Shown here: positions 6,165 through 63,682 of the stretch, in pieces | How positions within the stretch are numbered: position 1 is the stretch's first letter | Layout: every line of letters begins with the position of its first letter | Source of the DNA: Hoeflea sp. | Lineage (GTDB): Bacteria > Pseudomonadota > Alphaproteobacteria > Rhizobiales > Rhizobiaceae | Length of the DNA: 64,000 nt | Assembly (NCBI RefSeq): GCF_019084245.1 | Contig: NZ_JAHRFE010000022.1 | Strand: one strand, 5' to 3' | Notes under the pieces: model-generated | What the model was told of the DNA's origin: nothing | Database searches by the model: none | The model's input: only the letters and a program-made list of their open reading frames with translations | Made by a program: the position numbers and the translations under genes

Positions 6165-6166
6165 GG

Positions 6167-6745: not shown

Positions 6746-6764
6746 GGCGGCCTCCTAGGTTAAA

Positions 6765-6845: not shown

Positions 6846-6875
6846 TTGTGCGAAGCTTTGAGAATGGGAAACGAG

Positions 6876-7319: not shown

Positions 7320-7324
7320 ATTAC

Positions 7325-8263: not shown

Positions 8264-8332
8264 GGGTATTCCTTTCAAAAGGGGAAGCGGGCCGCCGAAG
8301 CGGCCCTATAGGATGTTCCGTATGGAAACGGC

Positions 8333-9475: not shown

Positions 9476-10012
9476 CTAGATTCCCTTAATTGTCTGATTG
9501 GTTTTGTTGATCGCCGCGACCAATGCGGCGAAGTCCGTGCCGCTATTTTTGACGGACGTGACGGTCGCGGATTCGTTCATCGGAAACGTCACAATTGACG
9601 CCTCCCGAAGTTCGATTTCGTGGAGAAGGCGGGCGCCTTGTTTGCGGTCCATTTCGTCGCGGATTGTGCGGAATCCGATGGAGATTCCATCAACCGCCTC
9701 AGCCTTCATGAAGGCGTAAACCTCGCGGCCCTTGACTGTATCAAGGAGGATTCTGCCCTCGGCTCGCAGGCCAAAGGCGTCCTCTTCAAATTTGGTCCAT
9801 ACGCCAATCGGCTCCGTCGTGTCGTGCTGCCACAACATCTTGACCTTGCGCGCCGGGTACTTCTGCAGGCTGCTTTTGAACGCGCCAGGCATAACGATAT
9901 CGCCGCCGCGGTCTTTGACTCCGAACACACTGGCATAACCAGAGAACGTGCCGTCTTCTGCGATCGCCTTGATATCAAGCTCAATCGCGGCGCCCTGTGT
10001 GGTGGTGGTCAT
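9476..10012 (-). CDS. HK97-family prohead protease
   Basis: FSGYASVFG, MLWQHD, GISIGF, EASIVTFPMN. Confidence 0.95.
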   Translation of the reverse strand: MTTTTQGAAIELDIKAIAEDGTFSGYASVFGVKDRGGDIVMPGAFKSSLQKYPARKVKMLWQHDTTEPIGVWTKFEEDAFGLRAEGRILLDTVKGREVYAFMKAEAVDGISIGFRTIRDEMDRKQGARLLHEIELREASIVTFPMNESATVTSVKNSGTDFAALVAAINKTNQTIKGI

Positions 10013-11226: not shown

Positions 11227-11638
11227 CGGCAGCCTCCTTTACAATGGACTGCACAATGCTGCCGATTGGAATCACGATCGTCGAAACGTCGAATTTCAGC
11301 CTTGGCACGTCGCGGTCGGAAATGATGCGAGGCGAGCCGCATGCCCGCCTCATGACGGCCGGTGCGACTAGCAAGGCGTCTGCGGCCGGTGGCGTCCGCA
11401 GATTTTGAGCGGCGGCTGCGATAGCCATCAGCCATGAGCGGCCGGCTCGCTCCAGTTCAAAAGCAATGCGAAGCACTGCGACGTCTTGGATGCTAAACCA
11501 GCGCCTGCCCTTGCGCTTCTCCGAGAACAGGACGTCGAGGGTCCGATTGCGGCTGATGATGACGTCTAGATGTTTGCGTGAGAGGCCGACGATTCGCGCG
11601 GCCTCGGCGACTGTGAGGTCGCGCGTTGTCCAGGCCAT
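11210..11638 (-). CDS. MerR-like HTH protein at the head of the packaging operon
   Basis: LTVAEAARIVGLS...GRRWFSIQDV...ELERAG; GGAGG RBS. Confidence 0.7.
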   Translation of the reverse strand: MAWTTRDLTVAEAARIVGLSRKHLDVIISRNRTLDVLFSEKRKGRRWFSIQDVAVLRIAFELERAGRSWLMAIAAAAQNLRTPPAADALLVAPAVMRRACGSPRIISDRDVPRLKFDVSTIVIPIGSIVQSIVKEAADVAIQ

Positions 11639-11681
11639 TGGGCGGCCTCCTACGATGGTTAGAATTTCGAAAAGGCAAACA

Positions 11682-11729
11682 AAAAGCTGCGCCAGTGAAG
11701 CGTCTTGCGTTCAAACTGGCGCAGCTTTT
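11682..11729 (-). terminator. intrinsic terminator-like hairpin upstream of the head operon
   Basis: perfect 15-bp IR AAAAGCTGCGCCAGT / ACTGGCGCAGCTTTT followed on the minus strand by a U-rich run. Confidence 0.6.
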
Positions 11730-11867
11730 ACAACCTCGCACCGTTGCAGGACGCGCCGGCGCGGAGGCGATCAACCCACTGTGCGAAAGCGGGGATCAGT
11801 GAATTGATGGTGAGTAACCGCGCGCGGCCACCCACCGGCCGGCGCGGTGAAGCGCGCCGAAACAGAA

Positions 11868-11891
11868 AAAGGCCGCATCGCTGCGACCTTT
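11868..11891 (-). terminator. intrinsic terminator-like hairpin
   Basis: minus strand AAAGGTCGCA-GCGA-TGCGGCCTTT then TTCTGTTT; GNRA loop. Confidence 0.55.
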
Positions 11892-11934
11892 CCCATAAAT
11901 ACCCTTTGGCGTGCTGAAATGGGGTACCCCAACC

Positions 11935-12654
11935 CTATGCGGCCCTAACCCCGCGCCAATATCGATCAACGATTTCGAAGCCGTCAAATATGCGTGCCCG
12001 CGCCTCGCCCTTGGCGCCCTTCACGCCGGCGCCCAGCAGTTTGCCGATTTCTTCAAGGGTGAGTCCATCAAGAACAGACCATTCAAACGCGGCTAGTATT
12101 TTCGGAACAAAGCCCAGCCTTGCGCGGAGGTAGGCCAAGTCCCGTCCCGCATCGATTGCGGCCAGCAAAGGCCAGTCGCCATTCCATGCCTTGGGCACTG
12201 GCTTGGCGTTCTGGCGCGGGGCGATTGCCACGTTTGCCTTCCGTCCCTCCACCTGTTTCACACCCTTGTCGCGGCCGCTCTCGTCCTGATCGCGCAGGAG
12301 GTAAAGGTCATCAAGCGCCTGGCCTTTCAGTTCGGGCAGATGCGCCATGTCGCTCAACTCTCGATAGCTCTCCGCAAGGCGGAGACAGTAGGCGTTGCCT
12401 TCAGTCTTAAGAAGCTTGGCTAGAGGCCAATCCTGATTATCGTTCGCGGCCTGGCCGCTGTACTTGCTTGATCCGATGCGCGCCGCCTGCGAGGCCAGCC
12501 GCCATTCTAGTGTAGGTCCATCCTCGATCGCCTTGCCGCGGGCTGCGGGCTTTGTCCGCGGTGGTGTCCAGTCATTGGCCGGTTCAATGATTTTCTGCAG
12601 CGTATGTCGGCGATCGAAAACCGCCGGGTCCTTCAAATCCATGTCTTCACCCAT
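11935..12654 (-). CDS. putative late transcription regulator with C-terminal sigma-70 region-4-like HTH
   Basis: DGLTLEEIGKLLG HTH; position between replication and head genes; start 12654 or 12642 uncertain. Confidence 0.55.
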   Translation of the reverse strand: MGEDMDLKDPAVFDRRHTLQKIIEPANDWTPPRTKPAARGKAIEDGPTLEWRLASQAARIGSSKYSGQAANDNQDWPLAKLLKTEGNAYCLRLAESYRELSDMAHLPELKGQALDDLYLLRDQDESGRDKGVKQVEGRKANVAIAPRQNAKPVPKAWNGDWPLLAAIDAGRDLAYLRARLGFVPKILAAFEWSVLDGLTLEEIGKLLGAGVKGAKGEARARIFDGFEIVDRYWRGVRAA

Positions 12655-12870
12655 GGTTAGTGTGTCGTCGTACCGGACAGGCCGGCGGCTAGTGGGTGGC
12701 TGCATAAAAGGAAATAGTAATTTCGCTGAATTTCCGCCACTATATTTATGCGGCCAGCTCAACTAAAAGCGGCGCATATCCGAAATTCGTCAAGTCCTGC
12801 TGTCCAGCTTCTTGCAAACATCAAGAAGCTCATCCCCGCTACGGACCGCTTCACCACTTATCAGCCTCTA

Positions 12871-13002
12871 CACGTTACACGCGTTACATACACATACACT
12901 ACATGTATGTGTATGTAACGCTGTGGTGTAACGCTTGCAGGCTATGATGTGGCCGCGTGACAAGGCGTTACAATTGTAGTGTTATGTAACGCTCTGTAAC
13001 GC
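12871..13002. other. putative replication origin: 18-bp palindrome plus CGTTACA/TGTAACG repeats
   Basis: GCGTTACATACACATACA (12881-12898) / TGTATGTGTATGTAACGC (12904-12921); further (G)CGTTACA or TGTAACGC copies nearby. Confidence 0.65.
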
Positions 13003-14079
13003 TGGTCTAAGATCAAATTTCCCATCAATCTCGATTAAAAATTCATCTGTCAAAGCGGCCCTCTGCCTTGAAAACCTTTGTCTTTTCGTGCCGTCCTTTA
13101 TATCGCCAGCCGCTTCATAGACCGCGGCCCGCCACTGATCTTCAGTCACAGGCGCATTGTCGTTGGCGGCAATGGCGGCCCGTAGAACCGCAGTCGCCTC
13201 GCCAATCGCGCGGCTAGCCTTTTGTAGCGGTTTTGTCACGCTCGGCGGTGCGCAGGGCACAAGAACCGGCGCCGTGGTGGCAATGCCATCGTGCTCGGCG
13301 AGCGTGACCGTTTCCATTCGATAGGTGCGGATCGGCCTGTCTGCCGACTCGTTGTTCTTCATCACTTGAGCCGTTGAAACGTCCCGCTTGCGGGTGATGA
13401 GGATAGACATATCGGCAGCCGCCTGTAGTTGCCCGCCGCCGCGCATGCGCTTCTCTCCGCTCACTGGCGTGTGGTGCACCACGACCACGGTGCAGCCGAA
13501 CGTTTGGCCGTCATGAAAATTTCCGCACCGCGTCGCGTCCGTCAGATTAAACACGGCACGCGCCATCCCGTCGGGGCTGGAATCGCTTACACTCATCGCC
13601 GCCGCCAGGGTGTCAATAACGACAACTTCAATGCTGTCATCCAACATCAGGTTGGCGGTTCGCAAAATCGCGCGCAGGGCATACGGCTCGGCTAAATCAA
13701 TCGGTCCGTCATAAACCAATACGTTGTCAAACGGCTCGCCGTCGTGGTGTTTGATGAACGCATCAATGCGCCGCTCAACCTGGCCCGCGCGTTCGGCCGC
13801 GATGTAAAGCACGTTTGACCGATACGGCAACGTGCCGCCGTCAAAGTCCAGACCAGCCGCAAGCCGGCATGTAACGTCAACAGCAAAAACGGACTTTCCA
13901 GCCTCAGAGGGTCCGTAAATCACAAGCAAGTCATTAGTCGCAACCCAGCCAGGCATGCGCCAATACTTACGAATATCGCGGCCTTCGCGGTTGTGGATCT
14001 TCAAATTGCTGGATATTTCAGAATACAAATTTTGATCTGTATCAAAATCTGACCAGTCAACACTTGACAAATTTGTCAT
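12982..14079 (-). CDS. RepA-type (AAA_25, RecA-like) replicative helicase
   Basis: Walker A GPSEAGKS, Walker B VVIDTL, VVVHH, RGGGQL; no N-terminal primase domain evident. Confidence 0.85.
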   Translation of the reverse strand: MTNLSSVDWSDFDTDQNLYSEISSNLKIHNREGRDIRKYWRMPGWVATNDLLVIYGPSEAGKSVFAVDVTCRLAAGLDFDGGTLPYRSNVLYIAAERAGQVERRIDAFIKHHDGEPFDNVLVYDGPIDLAEPYALRAILRTANLMLDDSIEVVVIDTLAAAMSVSDSSPDGMARAVFNLTDATRCGNFHDGQTFGCTVVVVHHTPVSGEKRMRGGGQLQAAADMSILITRKRDVSTAQVMKNNESADRPIRTYRMETVTLAEHDGIATTAPVLVPCAPPSVTKPLQKASRAIGEATAVLRAAIAANDNAPVTEDQWRAAVYEAAGDIKDGTKRQRFSRQRAALTDEFLIEIDGKFDLRPALQSVT

Positions 14080-14150
14080 AATGCCCTATTCTCCTTTATG
14101 TGTAATTGAACAATTTGCCCGCCCTGATTTTTCAGTGGCGGGCTTTTTTT
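14064..14150 (+). ncRNA. predicted promoter plus ~50-nt counter-transcribed RNA upstream of the helicase gene
   Basis: TTGACA (14064-69)-N17-TATTCT (14087-92); hairpin 14117-14143 followed by T7 on the plus strand only. Confidence 0.55.
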
Positions 14151-14152
14151 GG

Positions 14153-14353
14153 TTAGTCGATAGTGTCTTCCGCTTCCCTGGCTGCGAACTCGGCCATATC
14201 TTTCCGCTTCGCCGGATCCTCGATCCGGATCATTCCTTGAATAACCATAAGCGAGGCAGCCCCGTCAGATGGAAGGCCCACGGCCATCAACTGGCTGATC
14301 GCATCCTCAATAATTTCGCGGGCCTTCTGATTCTTGTAGTCGCCGACCTTCAT
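14153..14353 (-). CDS. small hypothetical protein
   Basis: ATG overlaps the alpA TGA (ATGA); MKVGDYKNQKAREII... Confidence 0.65.
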   Translation of the reverse strand: MKVGDYKNQKAREIIEDAISQLMAVGLPSDGAASLMVIQGMIRIEDPAKRKDMAEFAAREAEDTID

Positions 14354-14562
14354 GCTGCAGCCCTCGCCTGTACCTTTGTCCTTATCCACGCCATCACCTC
14401 AGAGCGAACAAACGCCACTCGCCTGTCGCCAAGCTCTACGGCGATCGGGAATCTGCCTTCGGCGCGGTAGCGGTTGAGCATCGTGCGCGACATGCTGGTC
14501 ATGCGGCAGGCGTCGTTCAACGAAACCAGCGTTGGTTCATTATCGTTCGCGGCTTTTTCCAA
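14350..14562 (-). CDS. alpA: AlpA-family regulator/excisionase
   Basis: AAGGAA RBS plus TTG; SLNDACRMTSMSRTMLNRY...FP.....G.RRVAF..SEV..WI. Confidence 0.88.
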   Translation of the reverse strand: MEKAANDNEPTLVSLNDACRMTSMSRTMLNRYRAEGRFPIAVELGDRRVAFVRSEVMAWIRTKVQARAAA

Positions 14563-14710
14563 TTTAATTTCCTTCCGGGGTTGACAGGTTTGCAGGAAAT
14601 GGTAGATTGACATCAGTGCTTCAATTGGGCTATCTGTTGATTGCTTACATCAGAGATGCCAGTCTGAAATCTAGTTGCATCTTACAAAAATGTCAACATG
14701 GCCGCTTTGG

Positions 14711-15886
14711 CTATTGGCAGTAGTCTGCCCATTCGCCCATCAGAGCGCGCCGCCGCTCCAAAGCATCCGACCGGGCGTAAGACCTTTCAACCGCATCGCC
14801 AACCGCATGACAGAGCGCCGCTTCTGCTATTTCGCGGGGCGCATGCGCGACTTCGGTTGCCCAATCGCGGAAGGTCGATCGGAACCCGTGAACCGTATAG
14901 GCGGCCGCCCCTGCCGATTTCAGCGCCTTTGCCAAGCTCATATCGGAAAGCGGCTTTCCGGCGCGCACGCCGGGGAAAACAAGATCGTTTACTGATTGCG
15001 CTTTCATAACCTTTAGCACCGCCAAGGCCGCGCCTGACAGCGGCACGCGATGCGGCTTGCCTCCCTTCATCCTTATGGCCGGAATCGTCCAGACGGCCGA
15101 CTCTATGTCAATCTCCCCCCATGTCGCGCCTCGGGCTTCCCCACTGCGCGCCGCCGTCAATATGGTGAACTCCAGCGCCCGCGCCCCGACGCCCTTGATC
15201 TTTGCCAGCGACCGCATGAAGGTCGCCACATCTTCATGCGGCATAGATGCGTGATGACGGGCCGCGACAAGCGCGTTCGGCTTGTGCAGCACATGCTCAA
15301 GATTGCCCTTCCACGCGGCTGGATTGTCGCCGGTTCGGTGTCCATCGACGCGGCTCGCGTCCAGAACGCGCTCAATCGATTCCCGCAACTTTTCGGCGGT
15401 TTCCTGCTTCACACCCCAAAGCGGTTCCAAGACCTTTTTGATGTCCTGAATGTCAATGTCGCCGATCGGCCGCCCGCGTATCGCAGCGGCATGGTTATTG
15501 ATTGCGTTCCGCCATCGCGCCTCGGTTTTCGCGCCGCGCCATTTGCCAGCCTTGACGGCGCGGTCAATGAACTTGTCGGCATAGGCTCCAAACAGGACCA
15601 CGGCAGGCGTAGAAGCCTCGACTTCGCGCTTGTCGCGAATCGGATCGACTCCGGCCCGCACCATTGCACGCGCCTTCTGTGCCGCTTCCCGCGCATCTGC
15701 CAGACTAACAGAATGAAGCGGGCCTATGCCCATTTCACGCCGTCTGCCAAACAAGGTGTAGTTGAAGATCCAGTACCGGCCGGTGCCCTTTGTGACCAGC
15801 CACAGACCACCACCATCACGCAGCTTGAGCGCCTTGCTTGCCGCGATTCCTTTGACCGTCAGGACGTTTTTTGTATGGCTCCCCAT
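14711..15886 (-). CDS. int: P4-family tyrosine integrase
   Basis: arm-binding N-terminus DGGGLWL...REMGIG; catalytic TAARSGE, HGFR, RSY. Confidence 0.95.
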   Translation of the reverse strand: MGSHTKNVLTVKGIAASKALKLRDGGGLWLVTKGTGRYWIFNYTLFGRRREMGIGPLHSVSLADAREAAQKARAMVRAGVDPIRDKREVEASTPAVVLFGAYADKFIDRAVKAGKWRGAKTEARWRNAINNHAAAIRGRPIGDIDIQDIKKVLEPLWGVKQETAEKLRESIERVLDASRVDGHRTGDNPAAWKGNLEHVLHKPNALVAARHHASMPHEDVATFMRSLAKIKGVGARALEFTILTAARSGEARGATWGEIDIESAVWTIPAIRMKGGKPHRVPLSGAALAVLKVMKAQSVNDLVFPGVRAGKPLSDMSLAKALKSAGAAAYTVHGFRSTFRDWATEVAHAPREIAEAALCHAVGDAVERSYARSDALERRRALMGEWADYCQ

Positions 15887-15890
15887 CGTC

Positions 15891-15911
15891 TTTCCCCGCT
15901 TTTTCCCCGCT
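15891..15911. repeat. tandem TTTCCCCGCT direct repeat, possible integrase arm site
   Basis: two 10-bp copies between the int start and att. Confidence 0.35.
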
Positions 15912-16027
15912 ATTGGGTATAGGGATTATGTAGTTGTTACGGACAAAATGGGCAAGCCAAATCGAGATAAATAAACGTTATCAATCAGTAAGTTATCGGC
16001 TTGGTTACAATGGATATTATCAAATAC

Positions 16028-16043
16028 CCGGCCCGGGGAGCCA
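16028..16043 (+). other. att junction: 3' end of a tRNA (probably tRNA-Asn)
   Basis: CCGGCCCGGGGAGCCA, CCA-ending T-arm/acceptor fragment as recalled for rhizobial tRNA-Asn; no 5' half present. Confidence 0.6.
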
Positions 16044-16224
16044 AATTTCCTTTCTTACGTCTGGCGCCGCGCCCACACCCCTCGCCGGAGTTGTTCGGTT
16101 GGGTCAAGTGTTGCGGCTGTCGGCGAAAAAAGCGCTGTTGCGGGCGTTTTAATCCGCGGTCTCGTTTCGGCGCGCTCCCATATCCCCAACGTCTCGGAAC
16201 TTCAGCGTTTTTTCGCAAAACTTC

Positions 16225-16250
16225 TGATCCGCTTTTTCCGTCCACCCGTA
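16225..16250 (+). promoter_or_regulatory. RpoE (ChrR-partnered ECF) promoter
   Basis: TGATCC-N15-CCGTA versus Rhodobacter sigmaE consensus TGATCC-N15-GCGTA. Confidence 0.7.
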
Positions 16251-16304
16251 TGACGCAATCAAAAGGCTCGGCGACTTTCGCCCAAACGGAAAAAATGTAT
16301 CGGG

Positions 16305-17765
16305 ATGGCACGCGACACCACATTTGACACGGACGCAGCAATCGTCTGGTTCCGCAATGATTTGCGGGTCAGCGACAACGCCGCGTTGATGGCCGCAAGC
16401 GCGCACAGCGCCGTTGTTCCTGTCTTCATCCGTGAAACCAATTCCCCTGCCCGGCCGCTCGGCGCCGCGCGGACCTGGTGGCTGCACCATTCGCTCCTGC
16501 GGCTTGGCCAGAAGCTCGAAAGCCTCGGCGCGCCGCTGCTTCTGCTAAGCGGTGATCCTGCCCAAATCCTGCCGGACCTGGTCAAGGCCAGCGGCGCGTC
16601 AGCGGTCTACTGGAACCGGCGTTATGATCCGTCGCACAAGGAAGCCGATGCGGCGCTCAAGGCCGAGCTTCAGGCCGACGGGCTGCGTGCCGAAAGCTTC
16701 GCCGGCCAGTTGCTGCACGAACCGTTGCGGCTCCAGACCGGCGGCGGGACCTACTACAAGGTCTACAGCCCGTTCTGGCGGGCGATGGAGCCCGATATCG
16801 AAAAGCGCCCGCCCCTGCCCGCACCGCAGTCGCTCACGCCGCTGTCGTCGGCTCGAGAGCTTGCGTCCGAAGAGCTGGCGAGCTGGAAACTGCTGCCCGT
16901 CAACCCTGACTGGTCCGGCGGCTTGAGCGACGCCTGGACGCCAGGCGAAGACGGCGCCCAGGCGCGGCTCACCGATTTTCTCGAAAACAGGATGCAGGGC
17001 TATGCCGAGCGCCGCGACATTCCCGGCATGGACGCGACCTCGGGGCTGTCGCCGCATCTGGCGAGCGGCGAGATTACGCCAGCGCAGATCATCGACGCGC
17101 TCGGCAATGCCGACTCGGACGCCTCCTCATCCGACCGGAGCAAATTCCGCAAGGAAGTCGGCTGGCGCGAATTCTCCTGGCACCTGCTCGCCAATGAACC
17201 CGGCCTGGCGGACCGCAATCACAATTCCCGGTTCGATGCGTTTCCCTGGATCAACAATGAGAAGACGCTTCATGCCTGGCAGAAGGGCCTCACCGGATAC
17301 CCGATTGTCGACGCAGGCATGCGCGAACTCTGGCGCACCGGCTGGATGCACAACCGCGTCCGCATGGTCGCCGCCTCGTTCCTGACCAAGCATCTGATGA
17401 TCGACTGGCGCCAGGGAGAGGCCTGGTTCTGGGACACGCTCGTGGATGCCGACCCGGCCTCCAATGCCGCAAGTTGGCAATGGGTGGCGGGCTCCGGCGC
17501 GGACGCCGCCCCCTATTTCAGGATCTTCAACCCGATCCTGCAGGGCGAAAAATTCGACCCCGACGGCGACTATGTCCGCAAGAACGTGCCGGAACTGGCT
17601 GAAATGCCTGCCAAATATATCCACAAGCCATGGGAGGCGCCAGACAGCGTGCTTGAAGCCGCAGGCGTCCGCCTTGGCGAAACCTATCCCGAGCCTATTG
17701 TAGACCATCAGGCAGCGCGCCAGCGTGCGCTCGCCGCATACCAGCAGATCAAGGATGCCGCATGA
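16305..17765 (+). CDS. phrB: class I deoxyribodipyrimidine photolyase
   Basis: WFRNDLRV.DN.AL, SGLSPHL..GEI, WREF, TGYPIVDAGMRELW.TGWMHNR.RM. Confidence 0.95.
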   Translation: MARDTTFDTDAAIVWFRNDLRVSDNAALMAASAHSAVVPVFIRETNSPARPLGAARTWWLHHSLLRLGQKLESLGAPLLLLSGDPAQILPDLVKASGASAVYWNRRYDPSHKEADAALKAELQADGLRAESFAGQLLHEPLRLQTGGGTYYKVYSPFWRAMEPDIEKRPPLPAPQSLTPLSSARELASEELASWKLLPVNPDWSGGLSDAWTPGEDGAQARLTDFLENRMQGYAERRDIPGMDATSGLSPHLASGEITPAQIIDALGNADSDASSSDRSKFRKEVGWREFSWHLLANEPGLADRNHNSRFDAFPWINNEKTLHAWQKGLTGYPIVDAGMRELWRTGWMHNRVRMVAASFLTKHLMIDWRQGEAWFWDTLVDADPASNAASWQWVAGSGADAAPYFRIFNPILQGEKFDPDGDYVRKNVPELAEMPAKYIHKPWEAPDSVLEAAGVRLGETYPEPIVDHQAARQRALAAYQQIKDAA

Positions 17766-53349: not shown

Positions 53350-53405
53350 TGGTGCGGACGACGGGAATCGAACCCGTACAGCCTCGCGGCCGAGGGATTT
53401 TAAGT
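53350..53405 (-). other. att junction: 3' half of tRNA-Leu(TAA) from the anticodon loop to CCA
   Basis: minus strand CTTAAAATCCCTCGGCCGCGAGGCTGTACGGGTTCGATTCCCGTCGTCCGCACCA; the 5' side (ACGAA) cannot pair with TCCCT; no D arm. Confidence 0.85.
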
Positions 53406-53572: not shown

Positions 53573-54763
53573 TTGCCCGTCCTATCCGACGATTTCGTGC
53601 AGAATCGTATCGCCCTTCGTGGTCGAGACGAACTGATTATCCGTGACAGCAAGCTCACCGGCTTCGCGCTCCGCGTTCGCCGCCGCGCCGACGGGTCACT
53701 GTCGAAAGTATTCTTCGTGACGCACGAAATCCCGTCGGCCGATGGGAAGCGGCGCCGACGCAAAATCATGATCGGCGACCATGCCACCTTCCCTGCCGAG
53801 AAGGCGCGAGCCGAAGCTCAGGCCATGTTGCAGGCTTTCAAGGTTGGTGACGATCCTGGCGCCGCTCGCGCTGCCAAGAGGGCACAACCGCTTTTTGAGG
53901 ATCTTGTTGCCGAGTTCGAAGAGTCTCACCTGCCCGAAAAGGCGGCAGCGACGCGCAAGGATTACCTTGGTCGCATTCGCCGGAACCTGCTTCCCGAGTT
54001 CAAGGGTCGGCGCGTGGCGGACATCACGGCAGAGATGGTGCGCGCCTTCATGCGAAAGAAGCGGGCCAATCCTATCGATGCAAACCGCTCCCTCGCCGTC
54101 CTGTCGAAGATGATGAGCCGCGCGATTGAACTGGACATGCGGAAGGACAACCCCTGCTCCCGGATTACCAAGAACAAGGAAACAGCGCGCGAGCGTTGGC
54201 TGGACGAAACCGAACTGCCTGTCTTCGTTAAGGCGCTGGCTGCTGTGGAAGGGCCGCACGGCGATTGCATCCGGTTCCTTACTGTCACCGGCTGGCGCGT
54301 CTCTGAGGCCTTGTCCCTGACTTGGGATATGGTCGATCTGCCGCGCTTGGTTGCGCGCCTTCCTGAGACGAAGACCGGGGTCAGTGTCCGGGCGCTGTCG
54401 ACCGACGCGGCGACGATCCTTGACGGCCAGCCGCACCGGGTCGGCTTCATATTCTCTGGCCGCCGCGGGACGCAACCCATTTCTTATAAGCGCTTGCGAG
54501 AAGTCCTCACCAAGGTTTGCGCGGCTGCGAAGATTGATCCGATAACGCCCCACGTCCTTCGCCATACAGCGGCGACATGGGCAGCTATCAGTGGAGCCGA
54601 GGCGCACGAGTTACGCGAAGCGTTCGGCTGGAAGACGCTGGCGATGACGGCGCGCTATGTGTCGAAGTCGGAAAGTCTCGCGCGCCGTGGTGCCCAACGC
54701 GCGGCGGACGCGATGAACGTTCTGCAGAAGCCATCCGCGGCAGTGGAGGTGCTGCGCAAATGA
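53573..54763 (+). CDS. int: tyrosine integrase with arm-binding domain
   Basis: RDSKLTGFALR, TGWRVSE, KTG, HVLRHT, RY. Confidence 0.93.
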   Translation: MPVLSDDFVQNRIALRGRDELIIRDSKLTGFALRVRRRADGSLSKVFFVTHEIPSADGKRRRRKIMIGDHATFPAEKARAEAQAMLQAFKVGDDPGAARAAKRAQPLFEDLVAEFEESHLPEKAAATRKDYLGRIRRNLLPEFKGRRVADITAEMVRAFMRKKRANPIDANRSLAVLSKMMSRAIELDMRKDNPCSRITKNKETARERWLDETELPVFVKALAAVEGPHGDCIRFLTVTGWRVSEALSLTWDMVDLPRLVARLPETKTGVSVRALSTDAATILDGQPHRVGFIFSGRRGTQPISYKRLREVLTKVCAAAKIDPITPHVLRHTAATWAAISGAEAHELREAFGWKTLAMTARYVSKSESLARRGAQRAADAMNVLQKPSAAVEVLRK

Positions 54764-55759: not shown

Positions 55760-55968
55760 CGAAGGACGAAGCGCTTGCACTGGTGCTGGCTTACCGAGCC
55801 CACGGCGGCACCCGAAGGGCAATCGTCCTCAGAGGCGGCAACCTGGGTATCGACATTTGGGAGGGCGACGACGGCGCCGCCCTTGCGTTCTGGCGGAAAT
55901 ACTTCGTGCCGTTGGACGACGCCGGCCGCGCCGCGATCTTGAAGGCGCTCGCTGAGGTGCCGGCATGA
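55756..55968 (+). CDS. small hypothetical protein
   Basis: ATGA overlaps at both ends. Confidence 0.6.
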   Translation: MTKDEALALVLAYRAHGGTRRAIVLRGGNLGIDIWEGDDGAALAFWRKYFVPLDDAGRAAILKALAEVPA

Positions 55969-56429
55969 AAAAGAATTTCAAGCGGAAAGGCAAAGGCAAA
56001 TTCATCATGCTCGATGGATATGTGAAGCGCTCTGCTGCCTGGAAGGATCTCACGCCGAATGACCGTTGCGCTTATCTTGAGGTCAAGTGGCGCTTTGACG
56101 GCGTGAACAACGGCCGAATCGGACTTGGTTGTCGCGAACTCGCCGAAGAGCTTGGCTGCAGCAAGATGACCGCGCTTCGGAGTCTCGAAAACCTTCAGCA
56201 GAAAGGGTTCATCTCAAAGGCCAAGGCGAGCGGCTTCAACCGTAAGGACAGGGTCACTGCTGAGTGGCGTTTGACCGAGTACCCTTGCGATGTGACGGGT
56301 GAATTGCCGACAAAAGAGTTCACACGTTGGGGCTCTCACGAAAAAACAACAGTATCACCAGAAGGACACACAGTATCACCACGAGGACACCTCGAGAGCG
56401 AAAAGGGGGTGAAATATGCCTCACAGTAA
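55965..56429 (+). CDS. winged-HTH replication initiator-like protein
   Basis: NNGRI.L..RELAEELG.S..T..R.L..LQ.KGFI; iterons within its 3' end. Confidence 0.7.
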   Translation: MKKNFKRKGKGKFIMLDGYVKRSAAWKDLTPNDRCAYLEVKWRFDGVNNGRIGLGCRELAEELGCSKMTALRSLENLQQKGFISKAKASGFNRKDRVTAEWRLTEYPCDVTGELPTKEFTRWGSHEKTTVSPEGHTVSPRGHLESEKGVKYASQ

Positions 56430-56513: not shown

Positions 56514-56822
56514 TTGATGACGACTGACGACCTTCCTCTGTTCGGGTGGACCCCGCCTGCGCCACGTCGTCAAGTCCTGCTCTTCCCGATGATCAACCGG
56601 GTAGGCAAAATCCGACACGTCGCGAAGTTGCTTTCCACCAAGAACGGTGATGACGCTGACCTGTATTGGCGACAAATCCGATCAGGTCTGCAGAAGCAAC
56701 TTGAGCGTGTCGGCGCTACCCAGCACGAAATCGATACAGAGATCCGGGCATTCTTCCAAGCCGTCCAGGCTGAGCTGGTTCGGATCACATACTTTGATCG
56801 GAACAACGGAGGTGCAGCATGA
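56514..56822 (+). CDS. DUF6074-like prophage protein
   Basis: DLPLFGW...VLLFP...RVGKIRHVA. Confidence 0.65.
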   Translation: MMTTDDLPLFGWTPPAPRRQVLLFPMINRVGKIRHVAKLLSTKNGDDADLYWRQIRSGLQKQLERVGATQHEIDTEIRAFFQAVQAELVRITYFDRNNGGAA

Positions 56823-57732: not shown

Positions 57733-57831
57733 ATGACCGACACACCCGAAACGATCCGCGAGGCGAAAGCCAGCGCCGAAAAGGCTTGGCGAGAGAGTCA
57801 GGCCGCCGAAGCGAAAGGCGGTGCAGCATGA
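57733..57831 (+). CDS. 32-aa peptide coupled to the Ntn-like gene
   Basis: AAGGA RBS, ATG 57733, TGA overlapping ATG 57828. Confidence 0.45.
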   Translation: MTDTPETIREAKASAEKAWRESQAAEAKGGAA

Positions 57832-58514
57832 GTGCGATCAACGTATTCCTTACGGATGAAGCCGCCCATGTCTTCACCGATGGCGCAATGTACGACCTTG
57901 ATGCCGGCGGCAAGATTTTAGGAGTTTGCTCCAAGCCTCTTACCCTGCCTCACCTCAATGCGGTCATCGCGTCCACGGGCTACATTTACGTGAACTATAT
58001 GTTGATGGGAGCTATCTGCGATTCGCGTGTCTCATCTTTTGATGAATTGAAGGATCACTTCGGTGCGATCGTGAAAAAGGCGTCAGCGGAGGCGCTGAAG
58101 ATTCCCGGCATGCCGAAAGGCCTTGGCTTCTTTGAAACCGTCATTGCAGGGTGGAGCGAGCGCGCCGACCGGCCGCAAGCCTACGCTATGGATCGAGGCT
58201 TCGGCGGCCTGGATGCGTCGAGGCCAATGCAAACCCGGAAGGTGTATCGCAAACCCGATCACCCCGAATTGCCGAAGACTAAGCGAACGGAACACGTTGA
58301 AGCGGACGGGCTCAGTCTGATGGAAGATCAGCGTCGACTTCTGTTCGGTTCTCACGATGCGCCAGGACTTGAAGCCCATGCCGTCGGGGGCTTCTGCCAG
58401 ATGACGACGGTCACCCGCGACGGCATTTCGATGAAGATCCTGCGGCGATGGCCGGATTTTATCGGCGAACCTATTTCCGTGACGCCTGACGCCGCTTCTT
58501 CGACCCTTTTTTGA
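57828..58514 (+). CDS. putative Ntn-hydrolase, proteasome-beta/HslV-like fold
   Basis: true start MSAINVF; S1, D17, K35, G50; VGG..TTVT...WPDF.G shared with 1672-2346. Confidence 0.6.
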   Translation: MSAINVFLTDEAAHVFTDGAMYDLDAGGKILGVCSKPLTLPHLNAVIASTGYIYVNYMLMGAICDSRVSSFDELKDHFGAIVKKASAEALKIPGMPKGLGFFETVIAGWSERADRPQAYAMDRGFGGLDASRPMQTRKVYRKPDHPELPKTKRTEHVEADGLSLMEDQRRLLFGSHDAPGLEAHAVGGFCQMTTVTRDGISMKILRRWPDFIGEPISVTPDAASSTLF

Positions 58515-58584
58515 TAGGCACAGCGCTGAAGCCGGCCCCGAAAAGGGCAGTGGTGATTGCCATGATGCCAGTGAAAATAGCCAT
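58471..58584 (-). CDS. 37-aa hydrophobic peptide with basic tail (tail-protein N-terminus remnant?)
   Basis: AGGAAAG RBS; MAIFTGIMAITTALFGAGFSAVPIKKGSKKRRQASRK. Confidence 0.4.
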   Translation of the reverse strand: MAIFTGIMAITTALFGAGFSAVPIKKGSKKRRQASRK

Positions 58585-58672
58585 GATCTTTCCTTTCATG
58601 ATTTGAGGCGGCACCATGCCGCCTCTCTCGTCTCTGGGAAGGGCGCCAGCCCGCTCAGAGTACTAACGGCCA

Positions 58673-60685
58673 TCAGGCGAGCCCTGCCTTCTGGTTCTTG
58701 GCGAACTTCGCTTCGGACTTCTGGACAGCAACATTAATGATAGTACCTGATGCCGTTTTGATCTGCTGATCCGCAATTGAAGCCATGCGCCCGCTGTCGT
58801 CTTGCAGGAAGATGGTCACGACATCGGACGATCTGCCGCCATCTTTGGGCATGTTGGATTTCAGGGTGCCGATAATTCCATCGGTTTGGTTATCGGTGAA
58901 GATGTTTTCCTTCTTCTGCACCAGCGCCATGACCTCATCATGCTTTGCCCGCTGCCCGCCGAAGTTGCCTCCTTGGTGGAATACCCCGGCGAACGGCGCT
59001 CCAGTTGGGAACGGGACCACACTGCCGCCGGTGCCGACTGTACCGCCATCATGGAACAGGCCTACGCTACCGAGCGCCAAGCTCGTCTGGGAAACGCCAC
59101 CGAACAAGCTGCTGAGGATGCCGCCGCCGCCGCCAAAGAGCCCGGCAAGCGGTCCGTTACCGAGGAGCGCGGCTTGAGCAACCGCCTTGATCAGGGTGTT
59201 GACGAATTGGTCGAGCGCGTCGTTGCCGGTCTTGATCTTCGGAACGAGGCTGTCGAAGGCATCGGCAGTTATGTCCTTGAAGAACTCCGCTGCTTCACTG
59301 GCCTGGCGCTGCGCCTCGGTCTCGTCATGGATGGCCTGGATCAGATCGACAATCGCAAGTTTCTGATCCTCGGTTGCCGCCGCTCCGGCCTGTCGAAGAG
59401 CTCGCGATTTATCCCGCTCGATATCGGTCATGCCGATTTCAGCGCGTTCTGTCTGGAGATCGGCGATCAGATCCTTGACGGCCTGGGCTTCCCTCAGAGC
59501 GGCCTCGGCAGCCTTGTTGCGGCTCTTGCTCGCCGTGCCCCCGGTGCCCCCCGTTACGGGCGTCGTGGCCGGTGGCAGCGTCCCTGCCCCTGTATCGCGG
59601 GAACTGAGGATGGCAAGGATCTCGGCTTCCGTCTTGGCGATTTCCTCGGCACGGGCCTTGAGCGCCAGAACGCCGGTATCAAGCTTTGCCTCGGCACCGG
59701 CCAGAACGGACGTGTTCCCGCGCTGCGCATCCTGGGCTTCAAGGATCTTCCGTTCGATCTCGAGCCGTTCAAGGCCAAGCTCCGCAAGCTGATTGTTGAG
59801 CCCGCGCGTTGACTGGTTTTCGATATTGCGCATCGAATCCACGACTTTTGCGAATTCAGATGCAAGCCCCGCAGCAAGCCGCGCCGTGGAAACAAGAAAC
59901 GGCGCCAGATCGATCAGCGCCTTCTTCAGTTCCAAATCCATGACCCGGCTAGCTGTCGATAGCTGATCGTTCATCTCTTCCGCCCGCACCAGAAGCTCGC
60001 GATCGATGACAATGCCGAGCTTCTGCGCCGCCGCTGCTGTCCTGTCGAAACCCGCCGAGCCATCTTTCAAAAGCTCGACCATTCGCGCGCCGTTGCGACC
60101 GAATGCTGCCGATGCAATCGCGGCCTTTTCGGTTTCCGATGTTGCAGCCTTCACCGCGTCCGCGACGAGGCGGAAGCGCTCTTCCTGGGTTTTCGCGCTT
60201 TGCAGTTGCTTGAGCAGTTCGGGGTTTAGCTGTTTTAATTTTCCGGCAAGTTCGCCCTGGCCGACCGCTGCAAGGCCGGAATTGCGAATGAAGGCGATCA
60301 GGCTGGCGTTTAATTCGTCGACGCCGACGCCGGCCAGATCGGCCCCGTAGGCCATTTCCTGATAAAAATCGGAACCGAGGCCGGTGGCCTTCGCGCTCTT
60401 CGCGATCTTGTCAAAATCAGCGACAGCATCACGTGCCTTGTTCAGCGCCGCGTTCATCGAAAGAATAGACCCAACCGATGCCACAGCGCCCGCTGCAAGG
60501 CCAGCGAAGGCCGCCGCACCTATGCCAGTTCCCAGCCCCGCAAACCGCCGCTGAAGAGCAAGAACGCCCTTGCCCATGCGTCCGGTGGTCTCATTCGTGA
60601 CCTTTTCACCGCGCCTGAGGCTTGCCTCGTAAGCTCTCAGATCGGCGTCAAGCGCGACCCTAATCGATCCAACTGTAGCTACCAT
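58673..60685 (-). CDS. phage tail tape-measure-like protein
   Basis: VGSIRVALDAD N-terminus, long Ala-rich helical body, C-terminal FHDGGTVG...DEV.A.VQK.E. Confidence 0.8.
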   Translation of the reverse strand: MVATVGSIRVALDADLRAYEASLRRGEKVTNETTGRMGKGVLALQRRFAGLGTGIGAAAFAGLAAGAVASVGSILSMNAALNKARDAVADFDKIAKSAKATGLGSDFYQEMAYGADLAGVGVDELNASLIAFIRNSGLAAVGQGELAGKLKQLNPELLKQLQSAKTQEERFRLVADAVKAATSETEKAAIASAAFGRNGARMVELLKDGSAGFDRTAAAAQKLGIVIDRELLVRAEEMNDQLSTASRVMDLELKKALIDLAPFLVSTARLAAGLASEFAKVVDSMRNIENQSTRGLNNQLAELGLERLEIERKILEAQDAQRGNTSVLAGAEAKLDTGVLALKARAEEIAKTEAEILAILSSRDTGAGTLPPATTPVTGGTGGTASKSRNKAAEAALREAQAVKDLIADLQTERAEIGMTDIERDKSRALRQAGAAATEDQKLAIVDLIQAIHDETEAQRQASEAAEFFKDITADAFDSLVPKIKTGNDALDQFVNTLIKAVAQAALLGNGPLAGLFGGGGGILSSLFGGVSQTSLALGSVGLFHDGGTVGTGGSVVPFPTGAPFAGVFHQGGNFGGQRAKHDEVMALVQKKENIFTDNQTDGIIGTLKSNMPKDGGRSSDVVTIFLQDDSGRMASIADQQIKTASGTIINVAVQKSEAKFAKNQKAGLA

Positions 60686-60715
60686 GTTGAAATCCTTTCG
60701 CTTTTCGCCATACGT

Positions 60716-60760
60716 TCAACAATTGAGAACGATATTATCATGTTCGTTCACAATTGTTGA
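60716..60760. promoter_or_regulatory. inverted pair of 13-bp operator-like sites
   Basis: TCAACAATTGAGA (60716-28) and TCACAATTGTTGA (60748-60, reverse complement TCAACAATTGTGA). Confidence 0.5.
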
Positions 60761-60808
60761 TATGAGGATGAAATTCCTATAAGGATTATAGTCCTAAACA
60801 TCGGAGAA

Positions 60809-61999
60809 ATGCCATTGTTCGCCAGACTGCGACAGGTTTTCAGCGCACCGGATCGGAAGAGCCTGGCGAACCCGACCGAGGAGGAGCTGAGGCTGTTCAC
60901 CGGCGGCACCCTTGGCGGATCCTTCGCGGTCTCCGCGACCGAGGCGCTGCAGGTGCCATCCGTGCAGCTTGCAATCCGTCTGATCAGTGAAGGAGTCGCC
61001 GCTCTTGATCGCCGCGTGGTGCGGATCGATGGATTGCAACAGATCGACGCGCCCGACCATCCCGCAAGCCGCTTCCTGACCAGCCATTGGAACGACTGGA
61101 CCTCGCCTTTCGAAGGCGTCCGCGATCTGGTCTCTTCGGCGCTCACTCATGATTTCGGCGGCGTGCAGTGGCTCAACAAGCCCGACGGCGAGCTTCGGGA
61201 AATCGTCGCCTATCGGTCGCTCACGGTCCAATTCGATACCGACACCGGGGAACCGAGATATCAGCTTGGCACGCGCCCGCTGCCCGCCGATGAAATCGTT
61301 CATATCCGCGGCCCGTTCTCGCGAAGCCCGCTCAGCCTGGCACGCGAAAGCATCGGCGTTGCGCACCTCATGGCCGAACGCGCGGGCAAGCTGTTCAAGA
61401 ACGCGGCCCGGCCGGGCGGCTGGATTGAGTTCCCCGAATTTCTGGACGAAGACGCCTTCATCCGCATGAAAAAGAGTTGGGAAGAAGCGCACGGTTCATC
61501 CGAAAACAGCGGCAAGACCGCAATCCTCTACGCCGGCGGCAAGTTCCATGCTGCCGAGTTCAAGTCGACCGACGCTCAATTCCTCGAGCTGAAGAAAGAG
61601 CAGGTGGTCGAGATCGGCCGGGCCTTCGGCGTTCCGCCTTCGATGCTGTTCAATCACGACAGGGCGACCTGGTCGAACTATGAGACCGCCGCCCGGTCCT
61701 ACATGGTCGAGACGCTTGAAGCCTGGATTCGCGTCACTGAGGCAGCACTGACCCGCGCCTTGATCCCGGCTGGCGAGCGGAAGACGTACCGCGTTGTCAT
61801 CGATCGCGACGATCTCACCCGGGCCGACCTGGTGGCCCGCGCGACCGCGATCAACAGCCTTCGCGCTTCCGAGGTTCTTTCGGCAGATGAAGCCCGCGAT
61901 TGGTTGGGCATGGCCCCGCGGCCGGCTGATCGGCTCGACGATTACAAGAACCCAAACATCAACCCTGATCGCGCACCAGCGCCAGCGGAGGCCGCGTGA
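60809..61999 (+). CDS. HK97-family portal protein
   Basis: NAARPGG, EIGRAFGVPP, SADEARDWLGM. Confidence 0.95.
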   Translation: MPLFARLRQVFSAPDRKSLANPTEEELRLFTGGTLGGSFAVSATEALQVPSVQLAIRLISEGVAALDRRVVRIDGLQQIDAPDHPASRFLTSHWNDWTSPFEGVRDLVSSALTHDFGGVQWLNKPDGELREIVAYRSLTVQFDTDTGEPRYQLGTRPLPADEIVHIRGPFSRSPLSLARESIGVAHLMAERAGKLFKNAARPGGWIEFPEFLDEDAFIRMKKSWEEAHGSSENSGKTAILYAGGKFHAAEFKSTDAQFLELKKEQVVEIGRAFGVPPSMLFNHDRATWSNYETAARSYMVETLEAWIRVTEAALTRALIPAGERKTYRVVIDRDDLTRADLVARATAINSLRASEVLSADEARDWLGMAPRPADRLDDYKNPNINPDRAPAPAEAA

Positions 62000-62502
62000 T
62001 GGAACGCCTCTTCATCGAAACAAAGATTGTGGCGAGTGACGCCGGTTCCGTCTCAGGAATCGCCTGGAAATTTGGCGAGCCGGATCGCATCGGCGACTGG
62101 ATCGAACCGGGCGCATTCAAGGGCGCGAAGTTCCCGCTGCCGATGCTGTTCGGTCATGACATGAATGATCCGGTTGGAACCTGGGACACGGCCGAAGAGA
62201 AGGCAGACGGGTTTCACATCACCGGAAAGCTGTTGATCGAAGACGTTGCCCGCGCCCGCGAAGTCAATGCGCTGGTCAAATCCGGCGCGGTGCGCGGCCT
62301 GTCGATCGGCTTCATCACCAAAAAGGCCAGTGCCCGCTCAGGCGGTGGCCGCACCATCAAATCACTCGAATTGCTTGAGGCGTCCCTTGTGACGATCCCC
62401 ATGCATGCCGGCGCGAAGGTAACTTCCGCCAAGTCGGCAGTCCTGGCGCTCAACATCGCCGCTGCCATCAACCGCGCAACCGCGCATATCGAAAGGAATT
62501 GA
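61996..62502 (+). CDS. HK97-family prohead protease
   Basis: MLFGHD, GLSIGF, EASLVTIPMH. Confidence 0.93.
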   Translation: MMERLFIETKIVASDAGSVSGIAWKFGEPDRIGDWIEPGAFKGAKFPLPMLFGHDMNDPVGTWDTAEEKADGFHITGKLLIEDVARAREVNALVKSGAVRGLSIGFITKKASARSGGGRTIKSLELLEASLVTIPMHAGAKVTSAKSAVLALNIAAAINRATAHIERN

Positions 62503-62503: not shown

Positions 62504-63682
62504 ATGAAACATCTCACCAAAGAAGCGCTGCGCGGAAGCGTGGCTATCGACCGAAAGGGCGATGACGAAGATCCGGTCAACCTCGTCACCAAGGCGCTGG
62601 ACGACCTGACCAAGTCGGTCGACGAGCGGCTGAAGAAGGTCGAGGAGAAGGCCGCCGCGCCGGACCTGACCAAGCTCGAGGACCGGCTGAAGGCAGTTGA
62701 GACGAAGGCCAACCGCCCGGCTGGTTCCGGCAATGCCGACGATCCGACCGAGGAGGCCAAGGCCGAGAAGAAGGCGTTTGGCACTTACCTTCGCCACGGC
62801 CAGCAGGCACCGACCGAGGAACTGAAGGCGCTCACCGTCTCGAATGACGAACAGGGCGGCTATCTTGCGCCGGCAGAAATGTCGACCGAGTTCATCCGCG
62901 ACCTGGTCGAGTATTCGCCCGTGCGTTCGGTGGCTTCGGTGCGCAACATCGCAGCACCTTCGGTGAAGTATCCGAAGCGCACCGCCGGCACGAACGCTCA
63001 ATGGGAAGGCGAAGCCGAGGACAGCGAAGAATCGACCGTCACTTTTGGTCAGGTGGAAGTTCCGGCCCGGAAGCTGATGACGTTCGTCGACATCTCGAAC
63101 GAGCTTCTGTCCGACAGCGGCGGCACCGCGGAGCAGGAAGTGCGCCTGGCGCTTGCCGAGGACTTCGGAAAGAAGGAATCGACGGCGTTCGTCAATGGCG
63201 ATGGCGTCAAGCAGCCGGAAGGTCTGATGACCAATGCGGACATCAGCAACACGATCAATGGTCATGCCACTGTCCTGGCGGCCGATCCGCTCATCACGCT
63301 GATGTATGCACAGCCGGCCATGTACCGGAATGCCGGCTCATGGATGATGAACGGCACCACGCTCGCCACCGTCCGGAAGCTGAAGGACGGCAATGGCAAC
63401 TATCTGTGGCAGCCGAGTTTCCAAGCTGGTCAGCCTGAGACCATCCTTGGCCGCCCGGTGATCGAAGCCGTCGACATGCCGGACATCGCGTCGGGCACGT
63501 TCCCGATCCTGTTCGGCGACTTCTCCGCCTATCGCATTGTCGATCGGCTGGCGATGTCGATCCTCGTCAACCCGTACTTGCTCGCAACCAAGGGCCTGAC
63601 CCGCATTCACGCAACCCGCCGTGTCGGTGGCCGCGTGCTTCAGGCTGCCCGGTTCCGCAAGCTCAAGATGGCCGCGTCGTAA
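62504..63682 (+). CDS. major capsid protein, HK97 fold
   Basis: GGYLAP, WEGE, YLWQP, LGRP, FGDF. Confidence 0.95.
   Translation: MKHLTKEALRGSVAIDRKGDDEDPVNLVTKALDDLTKSVDERLKKVEEKAAAPDLTKLEDRLKAVETKANRPAGSGNADDPTEEAKAEKKAFGTYLRHGQQAPTEELKALTVSNDEQGGYLAPAEMSTEFIRDLVEYSPVRSVASVRNIAAPSVKYPKRTAGTNAQWEGEAEDSEESTVTFGQVEVPARKLMTFVDISNELLSDSGGTAEQEVRLALAEDFGKKESTAFVNGDGVKQPEGLMTNADISNTINGHATVLAADPLITLMYAQPAMYRNAGSWMMNGTTLATVRKLKDGNGNYLWQPSFQAGQPETILGRPVIEAVDMPDIASGTFPILFGDFSAYRIVDRLAMSILVNPYLLATKGLTRIHATRRVGGRVLQAARFRKLKMAAS

Follow-up and report, generated by a model that had tools for sequence, protein, structure and literature searches.

The subject of this analysis is a tape-measure protein (TMP) gene at positions 58673-60685, minus strand, of a 64,000-nucleotide stretch of DNA from Hoeflea sp. 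(the window; assembly GCF_019084245.1, contig NZ_JAHRFE010000022.1), where it forms part of a 17.5-kb integrated island with its own phage head genes. The window corresponds to C7:858-64857 of a 4.82-Mb genome in 46 contigs, and the 20 kb to its right (locus L001) were read as well. As the original prediction stated, the gene encodes an intact TMP-like protein: its 670 codons contain no internal stop, and nine PHROG families of tail length tape-measure proteins match the product, led by phrog_10574 (E 3.5e-54), which aligns residues 6-558 with profile positions 4-551 of 640. Pfam and NCBIfam scans of the protein gave zero matches. A family profile built from 11 homologues and searched against the PDB matches lambda gpH of the solved tail (8iyk_H, E 5.8e-12) over the 190 residues at the C-terminus of gpH; phmmer with the single protein found nothing in the PDB, and gpH was reached by the family profile only. 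Residues 457-657 also align with the last ~180 residues of the 861-residue TMP of Brucella phage BiPBO1 at 39.7% identity. By this homology, the gene is a real, intact siphovirus tail tape-measure gene.

Siphovirus TMPs are recognized by sequence homology, by a long helical protein with hydrophobic and Gly-rich segments, and by their position in a tail operon, and the first two features are present here. The AlphaFold2 model is helical from residue 2 to about 510 at low confidence (mean pLDDT 52.5), and a Foldseek search of the PDB with this model is uninformative because only generic long-helix proteins were returned, none at E <= 0.001. Three hydrophobic segments (residues 48-81, 256-275, and 513-531) are found, as is normal in TMPs, and Gly makes up 28% of residues 501-560. 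The protein can be laid out as an N-terminal module (residues 1-60), a conserved helical center (62-514), a Gly-rich linker, and a phage-like C-terminal module (about 535-660). The start is an ATG at 60685 with an AAGGA ribosome-binding site 7 nt upstream, and the first 25 residues are kept in a paralogue on contig C21 and in phage TMPs; because of this site and this conservation, we prefer the 670-residue form to the database gene call of 634 residues, which is probably too short. The third feature, a co-oriented tail operon with frameshifting chaperone genes on one side of the TMP gene and distal-tail genes on the other, does not surround this gene. Instead, it is transcribed divergently from the portal gene (60809-61999, plus strand), as had been predicted, across a spacer of 123 bp.

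The island begins at attL (53350-53405), an imperfect repeat, 56 nt long, of the 3' part of tRNA-Leu(TAA) recovered by blastn of the left end against the right end, and it ends 6.9 kb past the window, where ARAGORN places the intact tRNA-Leu(TAA) gene (L001 7002-7086, or 70811-70895 in window numbering, 6.8 kb past the window). On the plus strand it encodes a tyrosine integrase (53573-54763; PF00589, PF22022, PF13356; phrog_1), a helix-turn-helix (HTH) protein resembling replication initiators (55965-56429; weak HTH Pfam matches, phrog_8102/270 replication initiation) with homologues in the same position in L004, L010, and L013, and a DUF6074 protein (56514-56822; PF19551, E 4e-25), a conserved gene of the satellite chassis that has homologues in C21, L004, L008, L010, and L013. 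A DUF3102 protein is also among the island genes. The head genes begin with the portal (PF04860, E 6e-71) and continue on the same strand with a prohead serine protease of the S78 family (61996-62502; PF04586), an HK97-type major capsid protein (62504-63682; PF05065, E 3e-84), and a 128-residue head-module protein (phrog_5707) that starts at 63707 and continues past the window end at 64000. Past the window (L001 327-6473) follow, in order, an HNH endonuclease, a head-tail adaptor, a tail completion (Neck1) protein resembling HK97 gp10 (phrog_5; the homologue in L036 is annotated PF04883), a tail terminator of the SPP1 gp17 type (PF11367, 42.8 bits against a cut-off of 24.5), a head closure protein, TerS, and TerL, and after TerL come a zinc-ribbon protein, two genes of no assigned family, and the tRNA-Leu(TAA) gene.

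Pfam and PHROG scans and end-to-end reading found no tube, chaperone, distal-tail, fiber, or lysis gene in the 17.5-kb island, and the whole 4.82-Mb genome has zero PF06199 (tube) matches and zero tblastn matches with the tube, chaperone, and distal-tail proteins of related islands. The lack of tube and chaperone genes noted beside the TMP gene in the original prediction therefore holds for the island and genome-wide. Between the window and the right end of the island there is no normal tail operon, a finding that had been named as one that would count against the predicted role. The tail parts that the island does encode are the TMP, the gp10-like completion protein, and the gp17-like terminator, all of which belong to the tail lumen and the head-proximal end. 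Judged by gene content, the element is a capsid-forming island of the satellite type that has head, packaging, and neck genes of its own, in agreement with the satellite assumed in the original prediction.

Related islands were collected across Hyphomicrobiales in three steps: a pattern scan of one genome per species, with a search built on 11 sequences, gave 14 loci; TMP and capsid protein queries against 400 genomes of the order gave 14 more islands; and the closest protein in a collection of 5.8 billion proteins gave one more. An intact TMP of 520-930 residues is present in 23 of the 27 islands with this head module, spanning at least 15 genera. The gene directly follows TerL in the same orientation in 18 of the 23 (L005-L010, L013, L021-L027, L031-L033, and L036), is immediately upstream of the portal gene, on the same strand, in two (L011 and L020), and is upstream and divergent in three, all from Hoeflea (the window island, C21, and L004). 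Since the divergent orientation is confined to these three islands, we regard it as a rearrangement of the Hoeflea lineage and not as a property of the system. Thus, the placement away from the head operon that first drew attention to the gene is real here, but it does not make the gene an orphan. As far as this distribution can tell, the TMP is a standard component of the satellite family and not a stray capture. The slot is filled by at least two unrelated N-terminal types (the phrog_10574 type and the phrog_17300/339 type), and in a TMP tree the Hoeflea clade alone is resolved, with unresolved deep branches and with phage TMPs on very long branches. More distant TMP homologues (L015-L017) belong to complete prophages whose genes follow the canonical order of terminator, tube, chaperones, TMP, and distal tail.

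Many of these islands carry a small chaperone-type gene between portal and protease, and a tube gene is confirmed by homology (tblastn or phrog_158) in at least eight of them (L005, L006, L008, L009, L010, L013, L024, and L026). L031 has a tube gene by phrog_158 directly, and a 161-residue gene in the tube position of L036 is probably a further one. The tube-less layout with a TMP is found in the three Hoeflea islands, in the Devosiaceae island L011, and in L020. The four TMP-less islands (element 1 of the window, L028, L029, and L030) have the adaptor only. Of the 23 TMP-bearing islands, 22 have a gp10-like completion gene, and none of the four TMP-less ones does; the presence of a TMP tracks with gp17-like terminator genes of the satellite as well. 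Element 1 is a further, more distant head module inside the window (TerL at 4136-5791 to portal at 10009-11226, minus strand); it serves as a natural TMP-less comparator, because it has neither TMP nor completion protein nor terminator and its only neck gene is the adaptor. One relative, read end to end, is a 17-kb island that runs from an integrase to tRNA-Gln and has no tip or lysis genes, for which reason we treat the family as satellites and not as small phages. The same 17-kb gene set is shared by many genera, inserted at a variety of tRNA genes.

A second island with the same layout, including a TMP gene divergent from the portal gene, lies on contig C21, so that, with element 1, this genome holds three paralogous head-module islands. 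Between the window and C21 islands, portal, protease, and capsid are 91-95% identical in amino acid sequence (dS 0.4-0.6) and the completion protein is 88% identical (dS 0.48), and identity falls to 71% in the head closure protein (dS 0.8), 62% in the whole TMP (dS 1.3), and 57% in the terminator (dS 1.6), the last two being the most diverged structural genes. By segment, the two TMPs are 78-81% identical over residues 1-300 and 42-49% over residues 301-670. The diverged parts, the terminator on the tube and the distal half of the TMP toward the tip, would be those that touch helper components, and parts expected to touch components supplied by the satellite stay conserved. The TMP is under purifying selection, with rough dN/dS values of 0.08-0.26: 0.26 for window against C21 (NG86), with 0.12-0.16 in residues 1-300 and 0.51 in residues 501-670, and 0.084 for C21 against L004 (NG86). 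Relaxed selection or frequent pseudogenization among homologues, which according to the original prediction would have spoken against a function, was looked for and not seen, and all 23 open reading frames (ORFs) are intact.

The two ends of the TMP have a history different from that of its center. The closest TMP, P0003, is 76% identical over 515 aligned residues with nearly all mismatches in the first ~60; its counterpart of the center (62-514) is highly similar, its N-terminal 60 and C-terminal 150 residues are unrelated, and its gene follows TerL in a tube-encoding island. Residues 480-670 used as a query instead return many phage TMPs of 750-1150 residues that belong to other N-terminal families (PF20155, PF06791, and PF10145). 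The best match to the C-terminal module, P0056 (987 residues, E 1e-33), has an N-terminal part from another TMP family and shares about 70 residues (TMP about 543-612) at ~85% identity, in the stretch FH.GGTVG...FPTGAPFAGVFH.GGNFGG.RAKHDEVMALVQK.ENIFTD.QTD. The genome around P0056 is that of a complete temperate siphovirus: it has terminator, tube, and TMP genes, large distal-tail and fiber genes, a muramidase, a holin, and an integrase. These matches suggest that the TMP is a conserved ruler with exchangeable ends, and phages that match its present C-terminal end are our best current guess for the helper type.

An island that has its own heads but no tail tube or tip would most likely use hybrid tails made from helper parts, and because the TMP is intact and selectively maintained without partner tube and chaperone genes, manipulation of helper tails appears to be its most plausible role. 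Among the roles listed in the original prediction, that one is retained, and a pure poison, ejection, or exclusion role is less favored than chimeric tails because the TMP co-occurs with completion and terminator genes, has swappable ends, and shares a C-terminal motif of ~85% identity with a phage TMP. We hold with moderate confidence that the satellite TMP is incorporated into chimeric tails together with the chaperone, tube, and tip of a helper, and that the top of these tails fits satellite heads. TMPs are anchored in the tip complex by their C-terminus, as in the lambda tail structure behind 8iyk. In the proposed sequence of events, a helper siphovirus would infect the cell and its chaperones would load the satellite TMP, whose exchangeable C-terminal module would dock into the helper tail-tip complex. 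Helper tube protein would then polymerize around the TMP, whose 670 residues would give a length of roughly 100 nm, and the satellite terminator and completion protein would cap the tube and hold the N-terminus of the TMP. The outcome would be a chimeric tail with a top that fits the head-closure and adaptor proteins of the satellite, and, as a side effect, tip complexes would be diverted from the helper.

Published work makes several of these steps plausible. The completion protein (gpZ, gp16.1, HK97 gp10, or 80alpha gp51) lies inside the neck in contact with the TMP, and both it and the terminator join the tail before the head is attached (PMC11661146). Phage-inducible chromosomal island-like elements (PLEs) swap the TMP, chaperone, and hub of their helper, build chimeric tails, and transduce poorly without their own TMP, and putative tmp genes are reported in some phage-inducible chromosomal islands that form capsids (cf-PICIs) (PMC12987554). 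Compatibility of cf-PICIs with tails is set by divergent adaptor and connector genes (bioRxiv 10.1101/2025.02.11.637232). Going further, the satellites may rebuild the inside and the top of the helper tail and steal only the tip, with the TMP as an adaptor that has two swappable ends, an N-terminal end that fits the satellite's own completion protein and a C-terminal end copied from the TMP of the current helper; the TMP would thereby set the helper range and starve the helper of tips. Full versions of the family would then supply tube, chaperone, ruler, completion protein, and terminator, and the Hoeflea version the ruler, completion protein, and terminator. We offer this extension tentatively, as possible and short of probable.

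Several points weigh against assembly of the TMP into chimeric tails. TMPs normally need their cognate chaperone, and here a foreign one would be required. Classical cf-PICIs join finished tails that already hold the helper TMP; for a satellite TMP to take part, another route, inside the cell, would be needed, and that route would be novel for capsid-forming satellites. No helper phage was found in this genome in the tube, chaperone, and distal-tail searches, which makes the helper partner hypothetical. The TMPs of C21 and L004 (527-605 residues) end after the Gly-rich segment and are strongly conserved in the absence of a C-terminal module, so that they do not fit a simple rule in which the C-terminal end docks to the tip. 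The dN/dS comparisons involve high dS values (1.0-1.9), and the estimates are rough for that reason. Finally, the association of completion gene and TMP (one-sided Fisher p about 3e-4) is descriptive only, because the islands are interrelated and the counts are not phylogenetically independent.

The fact that the island provides neither chaperone nor tube would also suit interference only, in which the TMP is a decoy that enters helper tail assembly, produces dead-end or wrong-length tails, lowers helper yield, and is dispensable for satellite transfer. The shared C-terminal motif would allow such a decoy to compete for the helper tip complex, and the TMP is a known point of attack on tail assembly by satellites, as with Rta of PLE11 (PMC12987554). 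However, a decoy has no need for a conserved full-length ruler, many relatives carry the TMP in one operon with their own tube and chaperone genes, and the TMP tracks with completion and terminator genes, which are sensible only on a finished tail; we consider interference alone unlikely. A role outside the tail, either as a packaged or membrane-inserted DNA-ejection or channel protein for satellite capsids or in superinfection exclusion in the lysogen, would agree with the three hydrophobic segments, the Gly-rich stretch, and the location of the gene on its own strand beside the regulatory half of the island. Yet hydrophobic segments are usual in TMPs, homology with tail TMPs extends from end to end and includes the tip-embedded C-terminus of lambda gpH, and most relatives have the TMP in the late operon after TerL, all of which leaves a non-tail role with a low probability.

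Two further explanations deny the TMP a current role in the satellite, or deny the satellite itself. If the island descended from a satellite or prophage that encoded tube and chaperone, the TMP could be a functionless leftover, consistent with the fact that Hoeflea-type islands lack the tube and chaperone genes of many relatives and that the last 78 codons of the C21 TMP run into the antisense of an inverted neighbor gene. Such a relic is hard to reconcile with intact ORFs in all 23 TMP-bearing islands, with dN/dS of 0.08-0.26, with a conserved ribosome-binding site and control region, and with a tube-less layout kept in three Hoeflea islands, Devosiaceae L011, and L020, and we judge it very improbable. 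The least credible explanation in our estimate is that the whole island, TMP included, is a decaying prophage or a domesticated cluster like a gene transfer agent (GTA). It has many structural genes, and elsewhere in the genome there are a degraded GTA-like cluster (on C28) and a remnant with TerS, TerL, and TMP (on C40). Against this, the att sites are intact, integrase and initiator are present, no pseudogenes were seen, one genome has three paralogous copies, the same 17-kb gene set recurs in many genera at different tRNA genes, and GTAs have complete tails and no integrases.

Since PLEs are the sole case in which chimeric tails have been shown experimentally, they are the best model for this TMP. 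PLE11, PLE1, and PLE4 of Vibrio cholerae (Mathur, Boyd et al., Nature 2026, PMC12987554) use their own TMP with the tube, tip, and fibers of the helper, as proposed here. In contrast to our island, PLEs parasitize a lytic myovirus, have no capsid, portal, or terminase, and carry a chaperone and a hub; PHROG and Pfam scans of the island and queries with the chaperone and distal-tail proteins of relatives gave no match to a chaperone or baseplate hub. Compared by gene content, the window island has a complete set of head and neck genes, and its tail genes are limited to those for TMP, completion protein, and terminator. No kinship in sequence with PLEs is apparent, although no search aimed at PLE genes themselves was made. 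The island may work like a PLE, but it is not a member of the PLEs.

In organization the island is closer to the cf-PICIs described by Alqurainy et al.: both are integrase-bounded, about 15-17 kb long, and equipped with their own head, packaging, and connector genes (HNH, TerS, TerL, portal, protease, HK97-type capsid, and adaptor or closure), both lack lysis genes, and in both the module diverges most in its tail-facing genes. They differ in gene order, which runs from portal to TerL here and TerS-TerL-portal in cf-PICIs, and apparently in chassis genes, which are the HTH initiator, DUF6074, and DUF3102 here and AlpA and primase there; family scans of the window island gave no match to AlpA or primase. 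Moreover, cf-PICIs are defined by the absence of tail genes, whereas TMP, terminator, and completion protein are carried here and many relatives add tube and chaperone. SatelliteFinder treats tail and lysis genes as forbidden components of cf-PICIs (PMC10085698), and because tail profiles are forbidden, this satellite family is liable to be filtered out.

EPIP satellites from Mycolicibacterium aichiense (bioRxiv 2025, PMC12822802) likewise carry capsid, adaptor, stopper, and TMP genes, and EPIP particles have tails of altered length. The two were likened by gene content alone, and EPIPs differ in their actinobacterial host, their serine integrase, and the fact that no TerL or portal is reported for them. 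Temperate siphoviruses of Hyphomicrobiales (BiPBO1 gp16 and prophages L017 and L034) have TMPs of 610-990 residues with homologous N-terminal, central, or C-terminal modules and hydrophobic segments; in these phages, the TMP lies between chaperone and distal-tail genes in the same orientation, whereas here it stands alone on the opposite strand. Unlike RcGTA-like gene transfer agents, the island has an integrase and att repeats and lacks tail genes (tube, distal tail, hub, and megatron).

The phenomenon of chimeric tails is thus already published, having first been shown in 2026 for satellites of cholera phages, and the new points here are how broad the alphaproteobacterial family is, that the TMP is linked to completion and terminator genes, and that the ends of the TMP are swappable. 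Before 2025-26, satellites were believed to spare tail assembly, and detection tools still drop candidates with tail genes. In a sizeable alphaproteobacterial family, however, a satellite-encoded tape measure is the rule, alongside the two proteins that meet the TMP at the top of the tail. The family forms a natural series, with no tail genes, with TMP, completion protein, and terminator, or with tube and chaperone in addition, which could reveal the tail parts that a satellite must own, and the TMP ends are candidate determinants of helper specificity. If the proposal is right, chimeric-tail piracy extends beyond the PLEs of a lytic myovirus and includes capsid-forming satellites that use temperate siphoviruses of marine and soil bacteria, and Hyphomicrobiales hold a large satellite family missed by standard finders because of its "forbidden" tail genes.

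The control region between the TMP and portal genes (60686-60808) was defined from the sequence and its alignment with the other two Hoeflea islands. It contains a palindrome, CGTTC-N9-GAACG, at 60713-60731 and a second conserved box, CGTTCACAATTGTTGATAT..GGATGAAATTCCTATA, at 60745-60785. Across the three Hoeflea islands, the 123-bp spacer aligns with 77% mean identity and the palindrome arms are conserved. A sigma-70 consensus scan of the spacer found no promoter, and terminator-like matches were no more frequent than in shuffled sequence. The conservation of the spacer suggests a single palindromic operator region common to the TMP gene and the head operon; the original prediction had regarded the TMP as separately regulated, and the shared spacer points instead to co-regulation with the portal operon. 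On the other side of the TMP gene, an RNA fold of 58500-58700 predicts a 9-bp GC-rich hairpin (about 58605-58625) that is likely a bidirectional terminator between the TMP gene and the convergent gene for a 242-residue protein.

The 242-residue gene (57786-58514, plus strand) has only a weak PHROG match, and its homologues adjoin the TMP gene in C21, L004, L007, L011, and L012; in relatives, it is usually co-transcribed just 3' of the TMP gene. Homologues were located at L004 11581-12273, L012 11533-12210, L011 12519-13208, and L030 5222-5869. Those of L004 and L012 overlap the TMP stop codon by 4 bp and accompany a TMP shortened to 520-527 residues, and that of L030 follows TerL with no TMP present. 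The product could process or replace the C-terminus of the TMP. Antisense to the 3' end of this gene and beyond the strong hairpin lies a 37-residue ORF, MAIFTGIMAITTALFGAGFSAVPIKKGSKKRRQASRK (58471-58584, minus strand), whose product has a single hydrophobic helix plus a basic tail; it is preceded by AAAGGAAAG. The ORF exists as originally described, a stub downstream of the TMP gene, but it is unlikely to be what is left of a gene. Neither the related islands nor the rest of the genome contain a homologue of it, and we rejected it as a leftover tail gene for this reason.

The remaining observations concern other elements of this genome and individual relatives. The C21 island (about 201000-217300; loci L002 and L003) adjoins tRNA-Gln, and its TMP has 605 residues, of which the last ~78 codons run through the antisense of an inverted 247-residue neighbor gene, the two convergent ORFs overlapping by about 220 bp. 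Element 1 spans 4136-15886 on the minus strand and reads TerL, TerS, adaptor, a 115-residue gene, HNH, phrog_5707, capsid, protease, portal, a primase-helicase (12982-14079), and a probable integrase (14711-15886). Contig C28 (55100-62600) has a degraded RcGTA-like cluster with portal, protease, partial capsid, and a 1282-residue g15-like protein, and with no tube gene. An integrase-bounded element of lower GC content and ~20 kb on C40 (106500-127300) has as its only virion-related genes a TerS-like gene, a 646-residue TerL-like gene, and a 1172-residue TMP (PF10145), which is the sole TMP in the genome besides the island copies; the element is either a remnant or another TMP-bearing type of satellite.

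In L020, the TMP directly upstream of the portal gene (12711-15437, minus strand; 908 residues) contains an internal endolysin- or lysozyme-like domain (phrog_938, phrog_465). L012 from Aquibium pacificus (844-16874) is a capsid-less island at tRNA-Gln with the order integrase, primase, S49-type protease, portal, gp10-like completion protein, 520-residue TMP, homologue of the 242-residue gene, and trypsin-like protein, and the trio of completion, TMP, and 242-residue genes appears to move between satellite types. In L030, the homologue of the 242-residue gene is followed by a gene for a 159-residue protein (4756-5235, minus strand) with a weak match to the central tail fiber J (phrog_31, E 5e-10). 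The zinc-ribbon protein of the window island (L001 4554-5450) has four C-x2-C...C-x3-C repeats and weak NinG and phrog_1271 matches; it is always last in the late operon, after TerL or the TMP, and has homologues in L005, L006, L009, L010, L013, and L024.

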